From the NCBI GenBank assembly GCA_964195565.1, contig CAXMRN010000228.1, positions 1-61,103 on the forward strand: a stretch of DNA of 61,103 nucleotides, in the 5' to 3' direction. Numbering within the stretch: the first letter of the stretch is position 1; the number at the start of each line of letters is the position of its first letter. The translations under genes and the position numbers were made by a program. Positions 6,601 through 51,345 of the stretch are shown one piece after another. The stretch is from an uncultured Polyangiaceae bacterium (GTDB lineage: Bacteria > Myxococcota_A > Polyangia > Polyangiales > Houyiibacteriaceae). The notes under the pieces are model-generated. The model made no database searches and had not been told where the DNA came from. It worked only from the letters and a program-made list of their open reading frames with translations.

Positions 6601-7510
6601 CGCTGACGAAGCGCGCCTGTGGCGTGATCGGTTGGCAGGTCCGGTACGGGTTGGCGAACGCGCCGTCTACCTGCGCACCGAGGGGTCGACCGTCCAGGGT
6701 CAAAGCGGGGTACTTGGCCTGCGCGGCAAGCGACTTGTCTGGCGGGGGCGGACGCCAATCGGGATTGTACCTGTACTTGTTCGCGCACACGAGCGCGAGC
6801 CACGCGGCGACCGCCTCTTCGGGCCGCCCCATCTCGTTGAGGGTGTACCCGATCAGATAGTAGACCCCGTCGGAGCGTTCGTAGGCAGGGAACCGCCGCG
6901 CGAGGGTCTTGTAGAGAGTGACCGTCGGTGTGAAGTCGGGCGACGTGGGGAGGCTGTCCTCGGCCGTGAGGTCGCCGGCCTCCCGGGCGGCTTGCGCATC
7001 GTCGTAGAGATTCTGAAAGTCGACGGCGCTTCGTTCGAAGTAGAGTTCGCCCAAACGAAACATCGCGTCCGGAGTGTACTTGGTGTGGTCGGGGTACCGG
7101 CGGATGAAGTCTTCGAAAACTCGAATCGAATTTTCACGAGCCTCGTCGAAGGCGCGCTCTTCAGTTTCGAGCCGCTCGCCATACCACCGGTCGCGCTCGC
7201 GCCGTTGCTGGAGATACTCGCGCCGCACCAATGACGTGACCGTCGAGCGGAAGGCTTCGCCCGTCTCAGTGAACCGGTCGACCTCCTCTTCGAGCTGTCG
7301 CAACGCTTCGAGTTGTTGGGCGGTAGGGGGCGGCCTCTGGTCGACGATACGCTTGTCGGTGTCCTGAAGGAACGGCGGCAGCGTCACGTCGGTCGCCCCC
7401 TCCCACGGCGCAGCCTCAGCTTCCTGCGCCGCCACGGGAACCGAGGAGCCCGACGCCGCGAAGCAGATCGCGAGCAACACCAGGGAGACGACCTTGCGAC
7501 CTGGGCTCAT
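3680..7510 (-). CDS. gltD: GltD/AgmU-like large exported TPR protein
   Basis: Signal peptide and 1276 aa of TPR repeats (DAMFRLGELY, WFRVGEYHFD, ALYKVAWAYY); 4-nt overlaps with both neighbours. Confidence 0.7.
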   Translation of the reverse strand: MSPGRKVVSLVLLAICFAASGSSVPVAAQEAEAAPWEGATDVTLPPFLQDTDKRIVDQRPPPTAQQLEALRQLEEEVDRFTETGEAFRSTVTSLVRREYLQQRRERDRWYGERLETEERAFDEARENSIRVFEDFIRRYPDHTKYTPDAMFRLGELYFERSAVDFQNLYDDAQAAREAGDLTAEDSLPTSPDFTPTVTLYKTLARRFPAYERSDGVYYLIGYTLNEMGRPEEAVAAWLALVCANKYRYNPDWRPPPPDKSLAAQAKYPALTLDGRPLGAQVDGAFANPYRTCQPITPQARFVSETWFRVGEYHFDDFGGQSSLDLSIAAYGRILENPDDRNYNLALYKVAWAYYRASRYPEAIHHFGRLVQWSDDARSKTGKAGSELRPEAIDYLGIAFAYDDWNENQVSDPIEGQPTGLERVQDGSLIPQQRLWTPEVYFQLGQVYFDEAKYLEAIAAWRLAISKWPNHHRTPEVLNDIAVAHQMHNEFENAILARSELTEYVQGSPWWNANMDHPAEQRNAEQLAENALIVTAVHHHHRAQRLRQQCVEERNVKLCRDSRVEYQLAASAYRGYLERYPNNPQGYELHYNLADALYWSRNYEQAATEYAEVRDSNVGDSYLAESARRVVESLNRIADRDVEEGRLLIRDEPPAPAGAPPSIHPVAMPETVQRLARAREIYLTRVPSNRDTEGVRAAYDYNNALLLYRYGFWPQADARFTRIYEERCSGPEADATGQIAWENLRAMAIATDDSEEIRRLATDIQERGCTFSARADKIDCTRPSNRDKPICRAGADLNALVYQDALDVYKRAGQATGTEQRLLYEQSATMLLAAVNSNPGDRQAPLALEYAALALEATNRFESAGQLYQRIIDEVGPRRAEDAEEQQSLDAILANAHFKLAYTASRNFDFDRAVENYRVLADSTRFAKSADSEVQSKRADGLVNSAILLEQLQRYPEATQYYRRVYDTVGDPETKRNALYRIAEMAYKQERYPQAIAGMRAFIKVYGNDGEAGELVVRAYWSIAQSWKARGRTGDYRMALQEVTASYERTGQPPGSIAAGYAAEARFILIDGKLSGFEKFQVKPGKPKTVEAYIKTITKQIGAGGTQAQSIANGYETVFPYRRPRWMIASYVRQGRAYEILARSILNTPVVMPLDLKKVLRQAGPDEREEYELDFDDKVRQVLDTKVRPVECFAVVRYALAARASRAGSFDDRYTRIAIDRLQAYGDERIAECIAEAHAHDATFQGYVPGEFARSPRGKPLEIRPGIAPPAITERNE

Positions 7511-40824: not shown

Positions 40825-41682
40825 ATGAACGGGTTGCTCACGGTCGTGACGCTGGTGGCGTTTGCTGCGAACTCGCTGTTTTGTCGGATGGCGCTTGGGG
40901 CTGAGCTGATCGACCCGGTTGCGTTTACCGCGATTCGGCTTGGGAGCGGGGTTGCCGTGTTGCTTCCGCTGGCTGCTTTGACATCAGAGTCGCGCCCGCT
41001 GGGGCGGTCCGCGGGGTCGTGGGGGTCGGGCGTCGCCCTCTTCCTCTATGCGATGGCATTCTCGCTTGCCTACGTGTCGTTGGAGACCGGAATGGGTGCG
41101 CTGATTCTCTTCGGGTCTGTGCAGGCGACGATGATTGGGGTTGGGCTTTGGCGCGGGGAGCGCCCCCGGCCGCGCGAGTGGATCGGCCTCGTCGTCGCGA
41201 TGAGCGGGCTCGTCTATCTAGTGTTGCCCGGCATCGCTGCGCCGGACCCTGTCGGGGCGTTGCTGATGCTCGCGTCCGGGGTCGGGTGGGGAATCTATTC
41301 GCTTCGCGGCAAGGGTGCCCCGGCACCCGTAGCCGCTACGGCCGGCAACTTCCTGCGCGCCCTTCCCTTCGCTCTTCTTGCCATCCTGGTCGCGTGGCGG
41401 TCGCTACACACGACGCCACGCGGAGTGACCCTGGCCGTCGTCTCGGGGTCTCTCACCTCGGGACTCGGGTACGTGGCCTGGTACCTCGCCCTCCGCGGCC
41501 TCACGGCGACTCGAGCGGCTATCGTTCAGCTTGCCGTACCCGTCTTCGCCGGAATCGGCGGGATTATGGTCCTTTCCGAGGAGCCCACCCTGCGCCTGGC
41601 CATCTCGAGTGTATTGATCCTTGGTGGCGTGGGCGTGGCGGTCTTGGCGCATCGCACGAATTCGGGTGTGGTGAGCGATTAG
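40825..41682 (+). CDS. DMT/EamA-family transporter
   Basis: About 10 TM segments; AFAANSLFCRMAL, YAMAFSLAY, SGLGY and QLAVPV. Confidence 0.9.
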   Translation: MNGLLTVVTLVAFAANSLFCRMALGAELIDPVAFTAIRLGSGVAVLLPLAALTSESRPLGRSAGSWGSGVALFLYAMAFSLAYVSLETGMGALILFGSVQATMIGVGLWRGERPRPREWIGLVVAMSGLVYLVLPGIAAPDPVGALLMLASGVGWGIYSLRGKGAPAPVAATAGNFLRALPFALLAILVAWRSLHTTPRGVTLAVVSGSLTSGLGYVAWYLALRGLTATRAAIVQLAVPVFAGIGGIMVLSEEPTLRLAISSVLILGGVGVAVLAHRTNSGVVSD

Positions 41683-41718
41683 CGTTTCATCGCCCCGAGA
41701 GATGTGCGAAACGGGATC

Positions 41719-42153
41719 ATGGGTGCTGAAACCAATGATGTCTGGCCGAGCGGGATGCCGAGGGTTGGTCAGCGTGCGGAACGAACGCGGGCTGTCCAAG
41801 CACGCGACATCGAGTTGTTCACAGAGATCTCCGGCGACCGCAATCCGCTTCACTACGACGAGGAACTAGCGAAGGCCACGCGGTTTGGGGGAATCGTGGT
41901 TCAGGGTGGCATCACGAGCGCCATTCTCAACGCCGTCGTCGCGGAGGATCTGCCAGGCCCCGGAACCGTGTTCTTGCACGTCGACTGGAGCTTCAAGGCG
42001 CCGGTGCGGCCCGGGGATGAGATCACGGGCAGGGTCGAAGTCCTCGAAGTGAGGACCGACAAGCCGATTACGAAGCTCAAGACCGAGGTCGTGCGCGAGG
42101 ACGGGACCGTCGTGCTGGAGGGCGAGGTGCTCTGCTACACGATGCCGCTTTAG
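41719..42153 (+). CDS. MaoC-family dehydratase
   Basis: SGDRNPLHYD, LPGPG and FKAPVRPGD. Confidence 0.9.
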   Translation: MGAETNDVWPSGMPRVGQRAERTRAVQARDIELFTEISGDRNPLHYDEELAKATRFGGIVVQGGITSAILNAVVAEDLPGPGTVFLHVDWSFKAPVRPGDEITGRVEVLEVRTDKPITKLKTEVVREDGTVVLEGEVLCYTMPL

Positions 42154-44549
42154 TGCTGATGCTGGTCGAGGACTTTTTTCGACAGCGGACGCAGCAGCAA
42201 CCCGTAGAACATCTCCAGATACCGCCGCGTCTCGTCGCGCTCGAGCGATGAGATGTAGCGCCAGAAGCCGTAGATCCGGGACAGCTTGAGGAGGGTCGAG
42301 GCATAGAGCTTCCAGTTGTATCGCTCGTCGACGCGCGCGATGCCGCCCCTGGAGATCGAATCCCAGGTGTTCGGGTCTTTCTCACAAGCCCGGAAGAATT
42401 CGAGCAGCTTCTGACTCGTCGCGGCGCCCTGATTGGGGTCGATGTGGAAGCCAGATAGGCCATCCTCGATGATCTCGAGGGGGCCGCCGTAGCGAGTTGC
42501 GAAGGTCGGTAGGCCACTGCTCATCGATTCGATGACGGTGAGGCCAAACGCTTCGAAGAGCGCGGGCTGCACGAAGGCGCCCCGCTGGTCGGCGACGAAG
42601 CGGTAGAGCCCCCCCACCTTGTTCTTGTCGGTCTGCATCTCGACCCAGCGGACGCTGCCCTCGAGATCGTATTGGTCAAAGAGCGAGTGCGTGCGCTCGA
42701 TTTGCTCCCGCTCGTCGCGGTCGCCGGACTCTTCGGCACGCAGTCGGCCCCCGACGATGAGTAGGTTGGCGGCGTTTCGGAGCTCGTCGTTCTGCGCGTA
42801 CCACTCGACCAAGCCGGCCATGTTCTTGATTCTGTCTAGCCGCGACATGGAGAACAGCAGTGGCTTGTCTTGGTCTTTCATGGACCCCCGAAAGGCGCAG
42901 TCCGGTGATCCGTACACCATCGTCTCGATCTCCGCGCGGAGCTCTTCGGGGCGACGCCCCTCATCGAAGTATGGGAAGAAGACGCGCGTATCGGCGCCCG
43001 GCGAGACGACGTTGAACTTTGGGTCGAAACAGTCGATCCCGGAGACGACGCGGTACAGACGGGGCAGGGTGAACGAGCTGTAGCTCTCGTACTGTCCAAC
43101 ACTCTCCGCAGTCCCGGCGATTTCCTGATAGGTGCTGGTGATGATGAAGTCGGCCGTGTTCATCGCCATGAGGTCGGCGGTGTACTGCGCGGCAAAGTGA
43201 TGCTCTGCTTCGTGGTCCTGCCAGTACACATCCGACAACAGATACTTCGTCTTCTCGAGGGCGTGGGCGATATTGCACTGCGTGACCCCAAGTCGATGCG
43301 CCATGATACTGGCGACGAGATTGCCGTCGGAATAGTTCCCAATGACGAAGTCGGGCGTCATGCCAGCGAGCTCCGCGAGAAGCTCGCGCTCCGCGTCGAC
43401 GGCGTAGCGTTCCAAATACGGCCACACCTCGAATCGTGAGATCCACTGCGGAATGACCTCGCCTGTTTCGTAGGTGCGGAAAGGCACACGGAGGATGCGC
43501 GCGTTCTCCGTCCCGAGGATCGGCTCGATGCGCTGATCGCAAGTCGTCCCGTCTGCTTCCGGGATCAATCGCGTGAGCACCACGATCTGTGGGGCGATGT
43601 CGAGTCCTTGCTCGTGGATCGACTGCCGCATCTCACGCTCGAGGGCGCGAACCTGGTCCAGGATGTAGACGACTTGCCCGCCGGTGTCGGGCTTGCCGAG
43701 GACGTTCGATTGTCCGAAATAGCCGTGCGGCGAAAGAATGGCGATTGAAAAGATCATCGGCATGCGCGCGAGAAAGCTCTCGAGGTTCGCCGCAGACGGG
43801 GCTTCGAGGATGTCGCGCAGGAGCCCCATCGTCTCGTTGATGCGCGCTGGCGTTCGTCCCCAGCCCGCCTCGAAACCTAGCCTCCGGAGCTGGCGCGTGA
43901 GGCCGGAGCTCTCCGTCGAATGCTCTTCGAGCAGTTTCATCGCGCGGTCCAGGGCTTCGCGAAGCTCTTCGGTGTCGTGCAGCGTCCCGTTCAACATCAG
44001 CTGTTGACCGCGAACCTGGTGCACCTGCAAGAAGTCGAAGAGGAGAGTCTCCCCGCGACCGCCGTCCATGAAGAGCCGTCCGGACAGATGACGGTTGAGG
44101 AACTCGACGCCGCGTCCGATGCTCCGGGAATCTTTGAGCTTGGGGAAGCCTCGCTCGAACGGGCTCAGGTCGACCTCGAGCACATAGCGATCGCCCTTGG
44201 GGAGCCCTGCCGCGACGCGTTCCTTGACGTCCAAGAACTCCGCCACGGTGAGCTCTCTGCAGTGCATCTCCTCGGTGTGTACTTGTACGAACTGCCAGCG
44301 CCCCACGCGCGTCCGAACCGCGAGGCTGACGAACGGCTCGTCGATGGCGGCCTCCTGCGCATGCCGCATGATCGACGACAACTCCGTCTCGAGAAGGGGC
44401 GCACCCACTGTCGACTCGCAGAACTGTTCGTACTCGTGGACCAAGTCCGACCACAGGAGGAACTTCCGATCCAACGCCTTGAGGCGCCTGAACAGAAGGT
44501 AAATCGGTTCGCGATGGGCCTGGAGCAACGCTTCGAGCTCTTGAATCAT
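42150..44549 (-). CDS. susA: Sucrose synthase (GT4)
   Basis: 799 aa; SIGRGVEFLNRHLS, SPHGYFGQ, PDTGGQVVYILDQVRALE, GNYSDGN, HALEKTKY, RLDRIKN and EAFGLTV. Confidence 0.96.
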   Translation of the reverse strand: MIQELEALLQAHREPIYLLFRRLKALDRKFLLWSDLVHEYEQFCESTVGAPLLETELSSIMRHAQEAAIDEPFVSLAVRTRVGRWQFVQVHTEEMHCRELTVAEFLDVKERVAAGLPKGDRYVLEVDLSPFERGFPKLKDSRSIGRGVEFLNRHLSGRLFMDGGRGETLLFDFLQVHQVRGQQLMLNGTLHDTEELREALDRAMKLLEEHSTESSGLTRQLRRLGFEAGWGRTPARINETMGLLRDILEAPSAANLESFLARMPMIFSIAILSPHGYFGQSNVLGKPDTGGQVVYILDQVRALEREMRQSIHEQGLDIAPQIVVLTRLIPEADGTTCDQRIEPILGTENARILRVPFRTYETGEVIPQWISRFEVWPYLERYAVDAERELLAELAGMTPDFVIGNYSDGNLVASIMAHRLGVTQCNIAHALEKTKYLLSDVYWQDHEAEHHFAAQYTADLMAMNTADFIITSTYQEIAGTAESVGQYESYSSFTLPRLYRVVSGIDCFDPKFNVVSPGADTRVFFPYFDEGRRPEELRAEIETMVYGSPDCAFRGSMKDQDKPLLFSMSRLDRIKNMAGLVEWYAQNDELRNAANLLIVGGRLRAEESGDRDEREQIERTHSLFDQYDLEGSVRWVEMQTDKNKVGGLYRFVADQRGAFVQPALFEAFGLTVIESMSSGLPTFATRYGGPLEIIEDGLSGFHIDPNQGAATSQKLLEFFRACEKDPNTWDSISRGGIARVDERYNWKLYASTLLKLSRIYGFWRYISSLERDETRRYLEMFYGLLLRPLSKKVLDQHQH

Positions 44550-47500
44550 TCGTGGTCCTCTGTTGGGACCCGAATGTCCCCTAAGAAATCATAGTGATCG
44601 ATGCCCTCGAGGATACCTCGGGCGTGTGGATTTTCCGCAAAGTGCACGCGTGGCCGTCCGCGCAGTCGTTCGAGCTCCGGCGTGTGGTTGCTCACCACGA
44701 CACCCAACGTGTCTCCTGAAAGCATGTCCCAGTCGTTCCCGGAATCGCCTGCCACGAGCAAGCGCTGCGGCTCCAGGTTCCATTTGAAACAGAAAAACCG
44801 AATCGCAAGCCCCGGTGACGCGCGGACCGGAATCACATCGAGGTAGACCTCGTGGTCGAGGATGGTCGTCACTCGGAGGCCCTCTTGGCGAACGAGGCGC
44901 CGGATTTCACGGAGACTGGGGGCCTGCTTTGGGTCGAGGCGATATCGAAGACGGTACTTGGTTTCGGATTTGGCCACTCGGCTCAGGCCGGGAATCGCGC
45001 CGACGACGCGATGCACCTCGTCGCGGTTCCATCGGTAGCGGATTTGCCGCTCCCAGGATCGGTCAGGCAGCAGGCGGGTGCCGTAGTGGAGCTCGGTCCC
45101 CGCCGCAGTGATGAGAAGGTCGGGCACCCTCACCTCGAGCTCCTTCATGAGGTCGAGAGATTCGTTCAGATTTCGTCCGGTAGCGATGCCAAAGCCGACT
45201 TTGGCGTCGGTCGTTTCGAGTTTCTGCAGCAGGATCGCCAAGGCTTCGTCGTCGCCGGTGAGCGTGTCATCGACGTCGGTCACGAGTACCCGGTCGATGC
45301 CTGCGAGTTTGCTCCGGAGCCGATGGACCGGCTGCGTGCCCCTCACGATTTTGCGGACCTCCTGCACGTAGCGGGCCGCGTGGCTATCCCAGGAGTAGTT
45401 CGCGTGTGCAGCGGCGAGGCCCGCCTTGGACCAACGGCTCCAACGCGCCGAGTCACTCAGAGCGTCCCGAATCGCTTCGCCGATCGCGTTTGAATCGAGG
45501 GCGTCGACCAGGAGTCCGTTGTTACAGGCGCCGATGATGTCCTGCGGACCCCCGTCGTCTGTGGCCACGACCGGGAGCCCCGTAGCGGCAGCCTCGAGCA
45601 GCGTCAGTCCGAACGGTTCGGTTAGCGCAGGATTGACGAACAAGCCCCTCGTCTGTGCCGCCAACTTGTAGAGATCGGGCACGTCGGTCGAGTCGTGATG
45701 CTTCGGGTATGCCGCCGAGCCGTAGAGGTCGTAGCGGTCGATCAACCCCAGAATGTTCCTGAGGACGCGGCGTTGACCAGCACTCATCTCCGCGATGTCG
45801 TCGCGGTTTCCCGCGACGATGATCAGGTTGGCCAGCTCACGGAGCCCGTCGGTCTCGCCAAATGCGCGCACCAGGCCTTCGAAGTTCTTTCGCTCGTCTG
45901 CTCTGGCCAACGCGAGGACCATCGGCTTGCGCGGATCGGCCAAAAAGCGGTCGAGCTCGCCGGCGATGCGCGGGCGTGACCACCCCGACTCTGGAGGAGA
46001 GAAACGCGACAGGTCAACGCCCGGCGGAATCACCTGCATGCGGTCGGGCTGGTAGTGGTCGTAGAGCTCATACTGCTCGCTAACCTCTTGGCGAGTACTG
46101 GCGATGACCAAGGCGGCCGTCTCGACGGCCCGTTCCTCGGCTTCGATTCGCTGTGTGAACCGGTACGTTTGCTCACTGGCTTCGCCCCGGGATTCGAGCC
46201 GCAGCTTTTTGACCCGGCCGAGCGAGTGGCCCGTGAAGACGAATGGCACACCGAGCAGCTTTGCGAGCTGAGCGCCAAGATAGCCCGCGTCTGCGTAGTG
46301 ACCATGGATCACGTCGGGGGTTCGCTCTTGCATCCGTACGTAGCGCGTGAGCTGATCCAGGAGGCTGTCGAGATGGGGCCAGAGGGTCTCTTTGCGGAGA
46401 TAACGGCGGGGGCCAAATGGAATGCGGACGATCTGCGCGCCCTTGCAGATCGGTTCGAACGGTCGTGAGTAGCTGTCGTCGACCCTTCGGTCCTCGATGA
46501 GTCGCGTCACGACGTCAACTCGTTCGACGTCAGGGTGTTGGGCGAGCGCCCTGGCCTGGTCCACCACGTACGAAACCTGGCCCCCTGTGTCGGCGTCCCG
46601 TCCAAGCTCGATATCGGTCGCGCGCACCAAACCGTGGATGGTGAGCGACAGGACGTAGAGGCCCTCGGAGCCAGGCGCACTGATCGACCCGGCGCTCGTG
46701 TCTTCGGACCAGGTGGCTAGGTGCCGCTCATACAGGGCGAAGTCGGGGGTGGTCGCACCACGGACCGCGCACAAGTCCGCCGCGAATCGGGCCGCGCGGT
46801 CGAGGGTCGTCTGGTGGTCCCAATCGTGAAGCAATCCGAGGCACACGACGGCGCTGAACGCGTCGCCCGCTCCCACTGTATCGACGATGTCGGTGACCGG
46901 CGCAGCCGCTGCTTCAAAGACCCGCTTGCCGTCCACGATCGATAGCGCGCCCCGTGAACCCCGAGTCACAATCACGCCGTCGATCGAGTGGTCACTCGCC
47001 AGCCGGAGTGCCGCGTCTCTGCATTCTTCGAATGTGCGCGTCGGCCGGCCGGAAAGATCCGCGAGCTCGTTGTCGTTGAGCTTGATCCAGTCTGCGGTCG
47101 ATAAGCACCAATCGACTTTTTCTTTCGTCCACCAGGGATCGCGAAGGTTGAGGTCGACGAACGTCGGGGCATCGGCCTTGTCCCTCAACGCGCGCAACGT
47201 ATTCCAGCTATCAGCGGCGCGAAGGGCGAGCGTCCCGTGGTAGAGGAGGCCGGCCGGCTTCTCCGACGCGGCCCGAACGGCATGGTCGCGGTGGATGAAG
47301 TCCCACGCCTGGGCCGGCGCGATCTCGAAGTGGTTCTCGCCGCCGACGACCGTTGCGGTGACTCTTCCCGTCGGATGGGTGGCGTCGGTCTGCACGCCGT
47401 CCGTCATCAGATCCCAGCTGGTCATCCGCTCGAGGACCTCGCGACCGTCGGCGTCTTCTCCCACCGCACTGACCACCAGGGGATTCGCCCCGAAGCCCCG

Positions 47501-47611
47501 CAGATGCCAAGCGACATTGAACGGCGCGCCACCCAACACACGACTCCCGTCGACGAAGTGGTCGAAGAGAACCTCGCCAAAAATGACAGGGCGATTGTGG
47601 AAACGGTGCAC
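44546..47611 (-). CDS. Triple fusion: PfkB fructokinase + sucrose-phosphate synthase (GT4) + HAD-IIB sucrose-phosphatase domain
   Basis: PfkB: GEVLFD, GGAPFNVA, DLNLR, DTVGAGDAF. SPS: HGLVR...ELGRDADTGGQ, HGHYADAG, TGHSLGRVK, EPFGLTLLEA. HAD: TDVDDTL, ATGR, GDSGND. One frame with no internal stop. Confidence 0.93.
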   Translation of the reverse strand: MHRFHNRPVIFGEVLFDHFVDGSRVLGGAPFNVAWHLRGFGANPLVVSAVGEDADGREVLERMTSWDLMTDGVQTDATHPTGRVTATVVGGENHFEIAPAQAWDFIHRDHAVRAASEKPAGLLYHGTLALRAADSWNTLRALRDKADAPTFVDLNLRDPWWTKEKVDWCLSTADWIKLNDNELADLSGRPTRTFEECRDAALRLASDHSIDGVIVTRGSRGALSIVDGKRVFEAAAAPVTDIVDTVGAGDAFSAVVCLGLLHDWDHQTTLDRAARFAADLCAVRGATTPDFALYERHLATWSEDTSAGSISAPGSEGLYVLSLTIHGLVRATDIELGRDADTGGQVSYVVDQARALAQHPDVERVDVVTRLIEDRRVDDSYSRPFEPICKGAQIVRIPFGPRRYLRKETLWPHLDSLLDQLTRYVRMQERTPDVIHGHYADAGYLGAQLAKLLGVPFVFTGHSLGRVKKLRLESRGEASEQTYRFTQRIEAEERAVETAALVIASTRQEVSEQYELYDHYQPDRMQVIPPGVDLSRFSPPESGWSRPRIAGELDRFLADPRKPMVLALARADERKNFEGLVRAFGETDGLRELANLIIVAGNRDDIAEMSAGQRRVLRNILGLIDRYDLYGSAAYPKHHDSTDVPDLYKLAAQTRGLFVNPALTEPFGLTLLEAAATGLPVVATDDGGPQDIIGACNNGLLVDALDSNAIGEAIRDALSDSARWSRWSKAGLAAAHANYSWDSHAARYVQEVRKIVRGTQPVHRLRSKLAGIDRVLVTDVDDTLTGDDEALAILLQKLETTDAKVGFGIATGRNLNESLDLMKELEVRVPDLLITAAGTELHYGTRLLPDRSWERQIRYRWNRDEVHRVVGAIPGLSRVAKSETKYRLRYRLDPKQAPSLREIRRLVRQEGLRVTTILDHEVYLDVIPVRASPGLAIRFFCFKWNLEPQRLLVAGDSGNDWDMLSGDTLGVVVSNHTPELERLRGRPRVHFAENPHARGILEGIDHYDFLGDIRVPTEDHE

Positions 47612-47630
47612 GGCTTCTTACCTGACGCCT

Positions 47631-47644
47631 TCCTGCGTGCAGGA
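47631..47644. promoter_or_regulatory. Dyad TCCTGC-GT-GCAGGA between the divergent sps and spp genes (possible operator)
   Basis: Perfect 6-bp arms inside the 63-nt intergenic gap. Confidence 0.35.
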
Positions 47645-47674
47645 GGGTTCGGTCCTCGCTAAGCTCACGTCCGG

Positions 47675-48478
47675 ATGAGCATACCACGTTCCCTACTCGC
47701 GTCAGATCTCGATGGCACGTTGATTCCGTTGGAACGTGGCGCGCAACATTTGCGTGGCGTCGCGGAGCTGGTCGCTGCGTTCGAAGCAAACGAGGAGCTC
47801 CTGCTTGCGTACGTGACGGGCCGCCATCTTGCGCTCGCGAAGGCTGGCATCGCAGCCATCGGCCTGCCTTCACCGGACTGGTTCATCTGCGACGTCGGTA
47901 CGAGCGCGTACCGACGGACAAACCGAGGCTTCGAGGCCGATATGGAGTATCGCCGAGCGATGCGGGACGCGCTTGGGGGGCTTGGCGGCGACGACGTTCG
48001 AGCCGCAGTTGGAACAATCGAGGGGCTCGAACTTCAAGAGGATGAGAAGCAGGCGGAGTTCAAGGTGAGCTATTACACCCGAGGCCGGCCGGAGCCGTTT
48101 GTCGACACTGTGCAGTCGCGGCTCGACGTTGCTGAGGCGAAAGTGAATCTCGTAGCGAGCCATGATCCCGTGTCCGGGCGCGGGCTGCTCGATGTCCTCC
48201 CCGCGGGTATCGCAAAGGATTACGCGATCCGATACCTCCAGGAGCATTCAGGCGTGGACGAGGCGCTTCTCGTGTACGCCGGAGACTCCGGAAACGACCG
48301 CGCCGCCCTACTCAGCGGGTATCAAGCCATCGTCGTGGGCAACGCAGACGAGGCACTCAAAGCCGAACTGGCCGCCGATGCCGCCGCACAGGGCATCGCA
48401 GACCGGGTCTACTTCTCCGAACATCCATACGCCCGCGGCGTCCTGGAAGGCCTTCGACACTTTGAAATGGTGAAGTAG
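47675..48478 (+). CDS. Sucrose-phosphate phosphatase-like HAD-IIB hydrolase
   Basis: LLASDLDGTL, YVTGRH, DVGT, KVSYY, LDVLP...K and GDSGND; adjacent to sps and sus. Confidence 0.88.
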   Translation: MSIPRSLLASDLDGTLIPLERGAQHLRGVAELVAAFEANEELLLAYVTGRHLALAKAGIAAIGLPSPDWFICDVGTSAYRRTNRGFEADMEYRRAMRDALGGLGGDDVRAAVGTIEGLELQEDEKQAEFKVSYYTRGRPEPFVDTVQSRLDVAEAKVNLVASHDPVSGRGLLDVLPAGIAKDYAIRYLQEHSGVDEALLVYAGDSGNDRAALLSGYQAIVVGNADEALKAELAADAAAQGIADRVYFSEHPYARGVLEGLRHFEMVK

Positions 48479-48490
48479 GGATCCGGGGCG

Positions 48491-48633
48491 GAGGCCGGGG
48501 CACGGGGGAACGCGACACGCGGATATGACGAACGGGGCGCCTTGCGTGGCCCACGCCCCCAGTTCTTCCGGCCACCTTTGCAAGGCGCCCCGTCCGCAGA
48601 AACCGCGTATGGCGTTTCGCTGTGCCCCGGCTC
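48491..48633. repeat. Long imperfect inverted repeat (about 140 nt) between convergent spp and polA
   Basis: Nested arms GCCGGGGCAC/GTGCCCCGGC, ACGCGG/CCGCGT, ACGGGGCGCCTTGC/GCAAGGCGCCCCGT and GTGGCC/GGCCAC. Confidence 0.85.
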
Positions 48634-48639
48634 TTGCGT

Positions 48640-51345
48640 CTAGTGTGCCGCGCCCCAGTTGGGGCCCCAGCCTATGTCGACGGGCAACGGTACCGATAGG
48701 GGTACTGCGTTTTGCATGTGGTCGACGACGAGCTTCTCGAGCGCTTGGCGTTCGTCGGGCGGTGATTCGAAGACGAGCTCGTCGTGCACTGTCAGTACCA
48801 TGCGGCTCTGCAGCTTCTGCTTCTCGAGGTCGTGTTGAATCTGGACCATGGCGACCTTCATGATATCCGCCGCTGTGCCTTGAATCGGGGTGTTGCGCGC
48901 GATGCGTTCGGCGGCGGCTCGGAGGTTGTGGTTCGTGCTTCGGATGTCGGCGAGCGAACGGCGTCGGCCCAGCAGAGTCGTGACTAGGCCATTGGCGCCG
49001 GCCTGTTCGACCACTTCGTCGAGGAACGCTTTGACGCCGGCGTACTGGTCGAAGAAGGCGTCGATGTAGCGTTTGGCTTCCTTGCGCTCGATCTTGAGGT
49101 TGCGAGCGAGAGCGAAACCGGTTTGTCCGTAGATGACCGCGAAATTCACCGTCTTGGCTTGGCCCCGCATGCTCTTGGTGACTTCCTCGGGCTGGACCCC
49201 GAAGAGCGCGCAGGCAGTCTGGACGTGGACGTCGTCTCCACGAGAGAAGGCGTCGACCAGGGCCGGGTCCCGGCTGAGGTGGGCGAGCACCCTGAGCTCG
49301 ATTTGCGAGTAGTCGGCTGCGAGCATCGACCAGCCCTCCGCCGGCACGAAGGCATCGCGCACCCGCCGGCCCATCTCGGTGCGGATCGGGATGTTCTGGA
49401 GGTTCGGGTCGCTCGAGGAGAGCCGTCCGGTGGCGGTGACGAGTTGGTTATAGCGGGTGTGGATCCGCCCGGTGTCGGGATTTATCTCTCGCGGTAAAGC
49501 GTCTAAATACGTGCTCTTGAGCTTGGAAACCGAGCGGTATTCGAGGATCGCCTGTGGGAGCGGGTGAAGCAGTGCGAGCTCTTCGAGAACCCCGTGGTCG
49601 GTCGAACGCGCGGTCTTGGTCTTCTTGACGACCGGCAGGTCGAGCTCGTCGAAGAGGATGGTCTCGAGTTGCCGCGGCGAGGACACATTGAACTCGTGGC
49701 CGGCGAGCTCGGTGCATAGTGTGCGGAGTCTTTCGAGCTCCGCCGTCGCCTCGACGGAGAGTTCCTCGAGGGGCTGTGTGGCGACCCTGATGCCGTTGAG
49801 CTCCATCGTGGCCAGGACGCCTGCGAGGGGAAGCTCGACGTCGTAGAACAAGCGTTCGAACTCCCCTTCGTGCATCCGTGGGGTCAGCAGTTCGCTCAAC
49901 CGAAAGGTGAAGTCCGCGCGCTCGTTGGCGAAGTCCGCGACGGGGCCGACCTCGACCTCGTCCCAGGTCAGCGCCTTCTTGCCCTTCCCGCGGACGAGCT
50001 CCTCTTCGCTCAAGTCGCCGTCCAGCTCGTGGCGCGCCACGTCCTGAAGCCGATGGGCATGCCGAGACGGGTCGAGCAGGTAGCTCGCGAGTGACGGGTC
50101 GAAACGAACCCCCCGCAGCGTCACGCCTCGCCGCGCCCAGAACACGGCCTCGCGTTTGGCCAGTGCAAGTTTGGGGATGAGTGAGTTCTCGAGGAGTGGG
50201 GTCAGGACGGGCCCGGCTTCTTCCCAGCTCAGATGGTCCGGTGCACCGATGTAGCGGTGATCGAGCGGAATGTACGCGCTGACGCCTTCCACCCAGCTTA
50301 CCGCCACCCCAACGAGTTCGGCGCGGATGGGATCGTCAATGTCCATCACGGAATACAACGAAAAGCCGTTGGTTTCGCGGATGGCTCGGGCGACTCGGGC
50401 CAGATCCTCGGCGGTCGTGATGGTTTCGTAGTGCCCCTCGACGACGGCTGCGGCCTCGTCCGGCGAAGCCGGTTCGAGTTGGGCGAGCAGGCGGGTGAGC
50501 TCGAGCTCACTGAAGATCGCCCGGAGGGCGCTGGTGCTGCCACCGGTGAACGGGCGGGTGACCGCAGCCGGATCGATCTCGACGTCAGTCCGAAGGGTCA
50601 CGAGCTCCCGGGAAGTGAGCGCGTCGTCGCGATGGTCAGTCAGCTTCGCCTTGAGCGCCTTGCGTGTGATGTTGTCGAGGTTCTCGTAGATGCCCTCGAA
50701 CGTCCCATACTCTTCCAGTAGCTTGGCGGCGGTCTTCTGCCCGACCGAGGGAACGCCGGGCACGTTGTCAGAGCTGTCGCCCATCAGCGCGAGCAGGTCA
50801 CGCACCTGCCCTGGGTCCACGCCGAGCTTCTCGCGCGTCTCCTCGGCGCCGAACACCTTGTTGCGCATGGTGTCGTACATGACGACATCCGGCCCGACGA
50901 GCTGGAGGAGATCCTTGTCGGCGCTCACGATCACGACCCGGAGCCCCTTGTCACGCGCCTGGCCCACCAGGGTGGCGATGATGTCGTCCGCCTCGAACCC
51001 GGGCGCCTCGATCGGCGACATGCCCCAGGCCTCGACCACCTCTCGGACGCGACTCATCTGCTGTTGCAGATCGGGCGGCGCGGGGGGGCGGTTCGCTTTG
51101 TAGGCTTCAAACAGCTCCTTGCGGAAGGACCGTTGCTTGGAGTCCATCGCCACGATGAGCCCGTGAGGCTCGTGCTCCCGCAACAACTTGTGCAACATGG
51201 CCGCGACCCCGGCCACGGCGTGGGTTGGCTCGCCTTTGCTGCTCGAAAGCGGTGGAAGCGCGTGATACGCACGGAACACGTAGGAGCTGATGTCGATCAC
51301 GTAGATCGTCTCGGGATCCCCCTTGTTGGGCAGCTTCTCCACCAT
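48640..51345 (-). CDS. polA: DNA polymerase I
   Basis: 5'-3' exonuclease (YKANR, EADDIIAT, GDSSDNVPGV) and polymerase motifs (TGRLSSSDPNLQNIP, DYSQIELR, K.VNF..IYG, VHDE). Confidence 0.98.
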   Translation of the reverse strand: MVEKLPNKGDPETIYVIDISSYVFRAYHALPPLSSSKGEPTHAVAGVAAMLHKLLREHEPHGLIVAMDSKQRSFRKELFEAYKANRPPAPPDLQQQMSRVREVVEAWGMSPIEAPGFEADDIIATLVGQARDKGLRVVIVSADKDLLQLVGPDVVMYDTMRNKVFGAEETREKLGVDPGQVRDLLALMGDSSDNVPGVPSVGQKTAAKLLEEYGTFEGIYENLDNITRKALKAKLTDHRDDALTSRELVTLRTDVEIDPAAVTRPFTGGSTSALRAIFSELELTRLLAQLEPASPDEAAAVVEGHYETITTAEDLARVARAIRETNGFSLYSVMDIDDPIRAELVGVAVSWVEGVSAYIPLDHRYIGAPDHLSWEEAGPVLTPLLENSLIPKLALAKREAVFWARRGVTLRGVRFDPSLASYLLDPSRHAHRLQDVARHELDGDLSEEELVRGKGKKALTWDEVEVGPVADFANERADFTFRLSELLTPRMHEGEFERLFYDVELPLAGVLATMELNGIRVATQPLEELSVEATAELERLRTLCTELAGHEFNVSSPRQLETILFDELDLPVVKKTKTARSTDHGVLEELALLHPLPQAILEYRSVSKLKSTYLDALPREINPDTGRIHTRYNQLVTATGRLSSSDPNLQNIPIRTEMGRRVRDAFVPAEGWSMLAADYSQIELRVLAHLSRDPALVDAFSRGDDVHVQTACALFGVQPEEVTKSMRGQAKTVNFAVIYGQTGFALARNLKIERKEAKRYIDAFFDQYAGVKAFLDEVVEQAGANGLVTTLLGRRRSLADIRSTNHNLRAAAERIARNTPIQGTAADIMKVAMVQIQHDLEKQKLQSRMVLTVHDELVFESPPDERQALEKLVVDHMQNAVPLSVPLPVDIGWGPNWGAAH

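Follow-up and report, generated by a model that had tools for sequence, protein, structure and literature searches.

The closest described systems are two-domain sucrose-phosphate synthases (SPSs), which consist of a glycosyltransferase domain followed by a phosphohydrolase domain of the sucrose-phosphate phosphatase (SPP) family (GTD-PHD). The two-domain SPS/SPP of the cyanobacterium Synechococcus elongatus PCC 7942 has both activities (PMC4390843), and a bifunctional SPS/SPP is described from Methylobacillus flagellatus (PMC7792115). The key residues of bifunctional cyanobacterial SPSs are reported to be intact and many of the genomes to have no independent SPP, while the SPS of Synechocystis carries a non-functional phosphohydrolase domain and occurs alongside a separate SPP (PMC4390843). 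Plant SPS and SPP interact (PMC5113954; PMC4493782), and Synechococcus PCC 7002 has an spsA-sppA-frkA-amsA operon (PMC11046441). Here we describe a locus in a window of 61,103 nt from an uncultured Polyangiaceae bacterium of marine sediment (contig CAXMRN010000228.1 of assembly GCA_964195565.1), where the window is the whole stretch of DNA that was analysed. In this locus a single open reading frame (ORF) joins a PfkB kinase to a two-domain SPS whose phosphatase-like HAD domain has lost one lysine. The parts of this fusion, including those placed with the help of an AlphaFold2 (AF2) model, are as follows.

44546-47611, minus strand: tri-domain ORF of 1021 aa with a GTG start, in the order PfkB kinase, linker, SPS glycosyltransferase, linker, SPP-type HAD
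46745-47545, minus strand: PfkB (fructokinase-like) domain, residues 23-289 (Pfam, 2QHP and motifs)
46658-46723, minus strand: interdomain linker 1, residues 297-318 (alignment, AF2 and bridging contigs)
45356-46660, minus strand: SPS GT-B (GT4) domain, residues 318-752 (TIGR02472, 2R60 and motifs)
44585-45289, minus strand: SPP-type HAD-IIB domain, residues 775-1009 (PF05116, TIGR02471 and 1S2O)
44813-44815, minus strand: codon of P933, which aligns to Lys163 of Synechocystis SPP (HAD alignment)
44945-44947, minus strand: codon of R889 (HAD alignment)

Like the two-domain SPSs, the fusion has an SPS glycosyltransferase (GT) followed by an SPP-family HAD domain, and both TIGR02472 and TIGR02471 score above their cut-offs. 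It differs from them in the extra N-terminal PfkB domain and in the absence of the motif-III lysine, whereas all four HAD motifs are canonical in 54 of 77 two-domain SPSs (50%-identity representatives), including P0121. Genomes with a bifunctional SPS are described as having no separate SPP, but the fusion genomes keep one, either adjacent (32/38) or elsewhere (5/5 tested). The combination of a degenerate phosphatase-like domain with a separate SPP is shared with the Synechocystis and plant-type SPSs; compared with these, the fused HAD keeps the nucleophile and the metal-binding aspartates and loses the lysine only.

At the level of gene clusters, three layouts can be distinguished. In layout A, found in Myxococcota and some Gemmatimonadota, a divergent spp is followed by the fused frk-sps-spp' and then susy, spp' denoting the fused HAD part. 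In layout B (Gemmatimonadaceae and Pirellulaceae) the order is unchanged, but frk and sps-spp' are two genes. Layout C has the order sps-spp', spp, frk, susy, and the arrangement GT+HAD, SPP and PfkB, with or without sucrose synthase (SuSy), was seen in 13 loci of Gammaproteobacteria, Desulfobacterota, Acidobacteriota and Hyphomicrobiaceae. The proteobacterial and cyanobacterial clusters (sps-spp-frk-susy or -ams) hold the same four activities with frk as a separate gene, whereas in the fusion the order is frk-sps, the two genes are joined and spp is divergent. The HAD of the gammaproteobacterial-type SPS shows another pattern of degeneration, in which the lysine is retained and the altered motifs read DLDQN and GGSGAD. 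The split clusters of Gemmatimonadaceae and Pirellulaceae resemble the fused locus in order and orientation, in a lysine-less HAD (RASPGL or RGGSDL) and in the divergent SPP, and they are sister groups of the fusions on the tree described below, but their frk and sps-spp' are two genes. The fusion is a variant of known enzymes and not a new kind of system, and its architecture is already present in public protein sets under generic names ("PfkB family carbohydrate kinase" or "sucrose-phosphate synthase").

Three domains in one polypeptide

The first-pass annotation, made from the sequence alone, had described one 1021-aa protein with a PfkB kinase, an SPS and an SPP-family HAD domain, and this observation is confirmed. 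The ORF translation includes every string that had been quoted (GGAPFNVA, DTVGAGDAF, the linker TWSEDTSAGSISAPGSEG, DVDDT and GDSGND), with neither a Met nor a stop in the linker. Pfam placed PfkB at residues 23-289 (1e-39), GT4/GT1 at 343-731 and S6PP at 774-1009 (6.5e-68). The AF2 model of the full-length fusion had a mean predicted local distance difference test score (pLDDT) of 87.0 and a predicted TM-score (pTM) of 0.73. A fold search with this model gave TM-scores (to target) of 0.86 for 2QHP, 0.77 for an SPS domain relative and 0.87 for 1S2O.

The source metagenome-assembled genome (MAG) is fragmented (243 contigs, 88.8% complete), and in two related MAG loci (L040:3-2947 and L053:6144-8878) the fusion is broken by frameshift-like changes. 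Both facts would fit an artefact in which a frameshift, a missed stop or a chimeric assembly had joined two genes. To assess the junction, the ORF was compared with four public runs, namely two DNA runs of other studies (X2 and X7) and two metatranscriptome libraries (X19 and X20). No indels were reported for 44546-47611 against the contigs of these runs, and the linker at nt 46658-46723 was bridged with 0 gaps by contigs covering 46421-46817 (X2), 44843-47013 (X7), 46651-46840 (X19) and 46652-46831 (X20). Independent contigs therefore cross the junction region (about 46650-46730) with no indel, which bears out the reading of the two halves as one protein. Comparison with relatives gives even firmer support: the three-domain ORF is unbroken in 38 of 79 related loci drawn from one-genome-per-species contigs, three more having a continuous PfkB-GT junction that is ended by a contig edge. 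Among the best 120 protein clusters at 90% identity, 114 are full-length (at least 990 aa) fusions, the flanks of the linker are conserved, and a full-length fusion is present in 17 of 19 genomes of the same genus. An assembly artefact was ruled out by the junction contigs, the related loci and the genus genomes, and we give it a vanishingly small probability. As for the two broken loci, in both of them the PfkB frame enters the SPS motif and then runs out of frame; these breaks probably reflect errors of sequencing or assembly, or else pseudogenes. At least half of the sampled words from 44000-48600 were found in 18 DNA runs of 11 studies, nearly all labelled as marine sediment, and the shares in the RNA libraries were 0.21 (X19) and 0.11 (X20).

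Kinase and synthase domains

PfkB kinases are recognised by a GG dipeptide with a sugar-binding N-terminal motif, by DTxGAGD with the catalytic Asp and the anion hole, and by the Glu of NxxE. The kinase domain matched PF00294 with 137.1 bits (cut-off 25.8) over residues 23-289. Its best PDB sequence match was the fructokinase 2QHP (3e-26), and entries named fructokinase were the best by sequence and by fold (2QHP, 5EY7/5F0Z). When the window protein was aligned with the 114 full-length fusions, which are 58-89% identical to it (n = 115), the residues G27, G28, A29, P30, N32, D153, N155, E182, D244, G247, G249 and D250 were invariant, R157 was present in 113 and N179 in 95. The kinase had been called complete, and GGAPxN as well as D244, G247, G249 and D250 of DTVGAGD are indeed kept in 115/115. 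In 14 sucrose clusters of the gammaproteobacterial type there is a separate PfkB gene, to which the fused domain is 41-48% identical. In these 14 loci and in nine split Gemmatimonadota/Pirellulaceae loci the kinase is a gene of its own, which the first-pass annotation had called normal for proteobacterial sucrose clusters.

The SPS part reached 659.9 bits with the TIGR02472 SPS glycosyltransferase model (cut-off 576) over residues 318-752, and its PDB sequence match was 2R60, the SPS of H. orenii (4e-61). DTGGQ, H438-Y439, GHSLG, K468, R570, K575, E665 and E673, all shared with 2R60 and which we take to be the acceptor and nucleoside diphosphate (NDP)-sugar binding motifs, are invariant in 115/115. 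The donor is probably UDP-glucose, since the own genome and all five near-complete genus mates (G013, G045, G053, G075 and G101) have a UDPGP-family (PF01704) gene, while neither the GlgC nor the GalU model reached its cut-off in any of the five or in the own genome, which is 88.8% complete. Weak GlgC/GalU matches were considered as an NDP-glucose source and rejected, the proteins being RmlA, a glucose-1-phosphate cytidylyltransferase and ManC/MurU-like. The own-genome position given for this observation on NDP-glucose supply is C66:18391-19239. PF01704 matched none of 14 control prokaryote genomes. The genus also has a GlgA-like gene just under the cut-off (280-291 bits against 328).

Linker 1 is 18-23 aa long in 114/115 fusions, with a sequence that varies between clades and conserved flanks. 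Its pLDDT was below 50 at residues 305-315 in both AF2 models, and pTM was 0.60 for residues 1-760 compared with 0.73 for the full-length protein at equal pLDDT. As far as the models go, these values fit a kinase that is loosely tethered to a rigid unit of SPS and HAD. AF2 confidence gave no sign of a fixed kinase-SPS interface, and channelling would therefore be by proximity at best. The proposed channelling from fructose through fructose-6-phosphate (F6P) and sucrose-6-phosphate (Suc6P) to sucrose retains its tethered kinase and SPS, but its last step is doubtful, as described below.

The lack of a confident kinase-SPS interface in the models would also agree with a kinase that does not feed the SPS with F6P. 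It could phosphorylate another sugar or serve as an ATP- or sugar-sensing regulatory or an oligomerisation module, the fusion being a neutral by-product of gene overlap; alternatively, the GT domain could make an analogue such as mannosylfructose phosphate, which Agrobacterium SPS homologues reportedly produce. No fructokinase equivalog of NCBIfam reached its cut-off (NF006957, 64.2 bits against 450), and Gemmatimonadota have both fused and split forms, which means that the fusion is not essential. On the other hand, the catalytic Asp, the anion hole, the GG dipeptide and the sugar-binding motifs are invariant, the nearest solved structures are fructokinases, and a homologous kinase gene is fixed in sucrose clusters of three layouts. 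The TIGR02472 score and the probable translational coupling to a true sucrose synthase also speak against these readings. Taken together, we consider such a function of the kinase or the GT domain quite improbable.

The fused HAD domain, the separate SPP and the proposed pathway

The fused HAD matched PF05116 with 229.4 bits and the model for SPS-attached SPP-like domains, TIGR02471, with 284.7 bits (cut-off 209.75) over residues 775-1009, while the SPP equivalog TIGR01485 was not reached (115.8 bits against 183.65). The PDB sequence match was Synechocystis SPP, 1S2O (5e-31). Residues D9, D11, T13, T41, D186 and D190 of that enzyme are kept as D779, D781, T783, T811, D956 and D960; T811 is present in 114/115 fusions and the other five in 115/115. 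The first-pass annotation was thus right that DVDDT and GDSGND are retained, but it had overlooked the loss of the motif-III lysine: Lys163 of Synechocystis SPP aligns to P933 (RSNKGN versus RASPGL). In the Synechocystis enzyme the phosphate of Suc6P touches Lys163, Asp9, Gly42 and Thr41 (PMC5113954).

To survey this position, 342 HAD domains from proteins and locus ORFs, hence a partly redundant set, were aligned with MAFFT. The fused domains never had Lys or Arg there (153/153; P 116, C 21, S 8, L 7, A 1), whereas Lys was found in 90 of 113 two-domain SPSs and in 68 of 76 stand-alone SPPs. P0121, the closest unfused representative, which is 54% identical over residues 316-1014, also keeps the lysine. 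The loss co-varies with R889, which is Arg in 151/153 fused domains and Ser in 71 of 76 canonical SPPs. Few parts of the fusion are better conserved than the region of motif IV (0.92 identity to the window protein). The strict conservation of the fused HAD speaks for a role that it still has.

Two side observations concern this domain. In a Gemmatimonadales MAG (L042:5623-8604) a fused ORF has a far more degenerate HAD (DMDAD, VTE and no aligned motif IV); this locus has no SuSy downstream and the copy may be decaying. Moreover, Arabidopsis SPP2 depends for its activity on the Ser behind the TGR motif, S54A being inactive (PMC5113954). The corresponding residue is Asn in the fused HAD (residue 814) and His in the stand-alone SPP of the window (residue 51), and these bacterial SPPs may have no such requirement.

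The fusion is flanked on both sides by further genes of sucrose metabolism:

42150-44549, minus strand: sucrose synthase, 799 aa (TIGR02470)
47612-47674, no strand: divergent intergenic region of 63 nt between the fusion and spp, presumed shared regulatory region
47675-48478, plus strand: stand-alone SPP, 267 aa, divergent (HAD motifs DLDGT, TG, K in GIAKDY, GDSGND)

The sucrose synthase scored 1130.7 bits with TIGR02470 (cut-off 810.4) and matched PF24861, PF24862 and PF00862 (SUS N-terminal, EPBD). Its ATG overlaps the TGA of the fusion (ATGA at 44546-44549) and no terminator separates the two genes, which are therefore probably co-transcribed and translationally coupled. The same gene lies directly downstream in 33 of 38 fused loci. 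A scan of 41600-48700 for promoters and terminators found no sigma-70-like promoter or consensus and two terminator-like sites, both inside coding sequence and fewer than in shuffles.

A stand-alone SPP adjoins the fusion in the window and in 32/38 fused loci. For the six fused loci with no adjacent SPP, an S6PP-family gene was found on another contig in 5/5 tested genomes (157.7-169.1 bits). These distant SPPs have DLDRT, the Lys and GDSGND, and they are of a different lineage, as they are only 32-39% identical to the window SPP. A separate SPP is thus kept in every carrier genome examined. In the genomes of L020, L037, L018, L026 and L025 the sole stand-alone SPP (L085-L089) is of the gammaproteobacterial-cluster type (DLDRT...ATK.H), which looks like non-orthologous displacement.

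The loss of the lysine together with the constant presence of a separate canonical SPP makes it unlikely that the fused HAD is the main phosphatase, and the fusion probably does not make free sucrose alone. The opposite would be a trifunctional enzyme in which the HAD is an active Suc6P phosphatase despite the missing lysine, for instance through the charge of R889, and in which the separate SPP is redundant, differently regulated or directed at another substrate. The conservation of the catalytic residues and of the domain as a whole, the co-variation of R889 with the K-to-P change and the TIGR02471 score would agree with this, as would a full-length pTM compatible with a compact SPS-HAD unit and the precedent of the bifunctional enzymes of cyanobacteria (PMC4390843) and Methylobacillus flagellatus (PMC7792115). 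However, the position of Lys163 is variable in the fusions (P/C/S/L/A), as if unconstrained rather than functionally replaced, and a canonical SPP accompanies the fusion in all carriers examined, even by gain of a gene from another lineage. The known bifunctional SPSs are also described as having intact key residues and as belonging to genomes that lack a separate SPP (PMC4390843). Trifunctionality therefore appears rather unlikely. The earlier idea of fructose to sucrose in one enzyme is partly supported: the kinase and SPS motifs are kept, but the step from Suc6P to sucrose is doubtful.

The explanation that we lean towards, and hold to be somewhat probable, is that the kinase-SPS fusion makes Suc6P, that the fused HAD has poor or no phosphatase activity and that the separate SPP completes the synthesis. 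The fusion would be the first gene of a two-gene operon, followed by sucrose synthase and placed beside the divergent SPP gene. Free fructose, taken up or released when the co-expressed sucrose synthase cleaves sucrose, would be converted to F6P by the PfkB domain. The tethered SPS would then combine F6P with NDP-glucose, probably UDP-glucose, to give Suc6P. The HAD would pack on the SPS as a substrate-binding, structural or regulatory module, being probably a poor phosphatase or none, and the final dephosphorylation would fall mainly to the separate canonical SPP. The data themselves show the architecture, that it is real, where it occurs and in what state each motif is; the substrates, the direction of flux, the inactivity of the HAD and the role in an osmolyte cycle are what we infer from them.

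Several points weigh against this explanation. The specificity of the kinase for fructose is deduced from sequence, and the shortfall of the fructokinase equivalogs does not favour it. The pTM values, used here with no predicted aligned error, are an indirect proxy for domain packing in the models. The contigs of the RNA libraries establish presence only and not transcription. R889 could supply the missing positive charge, and the HAD domain does not look like a decaying one, its residues fitting metal and phosphate binding and possibly turnover. Finally, all four activities together would amount to net ATP hydrolysis, so that regulation would be needed. A net ATP-hydrolysing cycle of this kind resembles the sucrose cycling of plant sink tissues.

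An ATP-driven, self-contained sucrose cycle can also be imagined, although we hold it to be unlikely. SuSy would release fructose and NDP-glucose, the tethered kinase would recapture the fructose as F6P beside the SPS, and the lysine-less HAD would be a re-engineered site, either catalytic with Arg889 in place of Lys163 or a module that holds or senses Suc6P and gates its hand-over to SPP. If true, this would be the first natural fructokinase to form a built-in part of sucrose synthesis instead of breakdown, and the HAD would be a phosphatase whose cationic residue has moved to another position.

With regard to the wider setting, the surrounding housekeeping genes include valS, polA and ffh, and no Rfam family was found in the whole window at gathering thresholds. 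The convergent intergenic region between spp and polA (48480-48640) is a partly palindromic repeat with no Rfam match. Within the own genome this repeat had 28 further matches; one was the repeat itself in reverse, and the other 27 lay on 11 other contigs. Metagenome contigs gave it a summed depth of 157-643, when the genes on either side had about 4-75, and they showed many loose ends. It resembles a repetitive extragenic palindrome (REP) or miniature inverted-repeat transposable element (MITE)-type element. Phototrophy or autotrophy was considered as the context of sucrose synthesis and rejected, as neither Photo_RC nor the RuBisCO large subunit was found in the own genome, in which absence is not proven at 88.8% completeness.

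Distribution, origin and significance of the fusion

All of the best 120 clusters had PF00294 together with SPS-type glycosyltransferase families, except P0115 (686 aa, partial); P0079, P0091 and P0115 lacked either PF00294 or PF05116. The fusion is found in many uncultured bacteria, its hosts being one genus of Myxococcota and some Gemmatimonadota. In a sample of 151 genomes of the order, the 17 of 19 own-genus genomes with a full-length fusion included the own genome, whereas none of five genomes from other genera of the family and none of 23 other families had it. In those other families the matches were weak, fell on separate PfkB genes and came from a single family (f17). A literature search found no description of a PfkB-SPS fusion, supplements and most subscription journals lying outside its coverage. 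The architecture had been thought uncharacterised, which agrees with this search, but with so many full-length clusters it is neither rare nor unrecorded. Other fusions of the SPS family were also seen, namely S6PP-GT-S6PP (P0124, 998 aa), an N-terminal S6PP followed by GT (P0208, 743 aa; P0215, 718 aa) and PfkB followed by GT with no HAD (P0122, 782 aa, which may be truncated).

The split loci offer a possible route to the fusion. In five layout-B Gemmatimonadota loci (L046, L048, L049, L050 and L054) the TGA of PfkB and the ATG of SPS overlap by 11 nt in different frames. Measured by hand, the conserved Trp and the GLY motif are about 40 nt apart when the genes are split and about 45 nt apart when they are fused, and a small indel would therefore turn one form into the other. 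By this comparison of sequences, the fusion probably arose from adjacent overlapping frk and sps genes by a small frame change. In a Pirellulaceae MAG (L044:5941-9045), PfkB and SPS-HAD lie in one frame and are parted by a single TAA (6868-6870), an arrangement that may be a coincidence, a recent fission or read-through.

A quick maximum-likelihood tree (72 rows, LG+G4) was built from the GT+HAD part and rooted on layout C. It placed Pirellulaceae and Sumerlaeota as sister to a starred clade, in which fused Gemmatimonadota, split Gemmatimonadaceae and fused Myxococcota formed an unresolved trichotomy. The fused state would therefore require one gain and one loss or else two gains; a single gain would do if the trichotomy were suitably resolved. 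The narrow host range within the order and the 58-63% identity of the window protein to Gemmatimonadota fusions suggest, at the sequence level, horizontal transfer between the Myxococcota genus and Gemmatimonadota.

The fructokinase of bacterial sucrose clusters is usually read as serving sucrose breakdown. A conserved kinase-SPS fusion is Rosetta-stone evidence that the product of the fructokinase feeds sucrose re-synthesis, and a complete cycle of synthesis and cleavage within about 6.3 kb would be implied. The separate, overlapping and fused genes, together with three patterns of HAD motif loss, form a natural series in which the benefit of fusion and the role of the SPS-attached HAD could be tested; the role of the phosphatase-like domain is a question for plant SPS as well. 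The fusion is also a compact candidate for biocatalysis, giving Suc6P or sucrose from fructose. Its occurrence in one Myxococcota genus and in Gemmatimonadota, mostly from marine sediment, suggests that an osmolyte module has spread horizontally among non-phototrophs.

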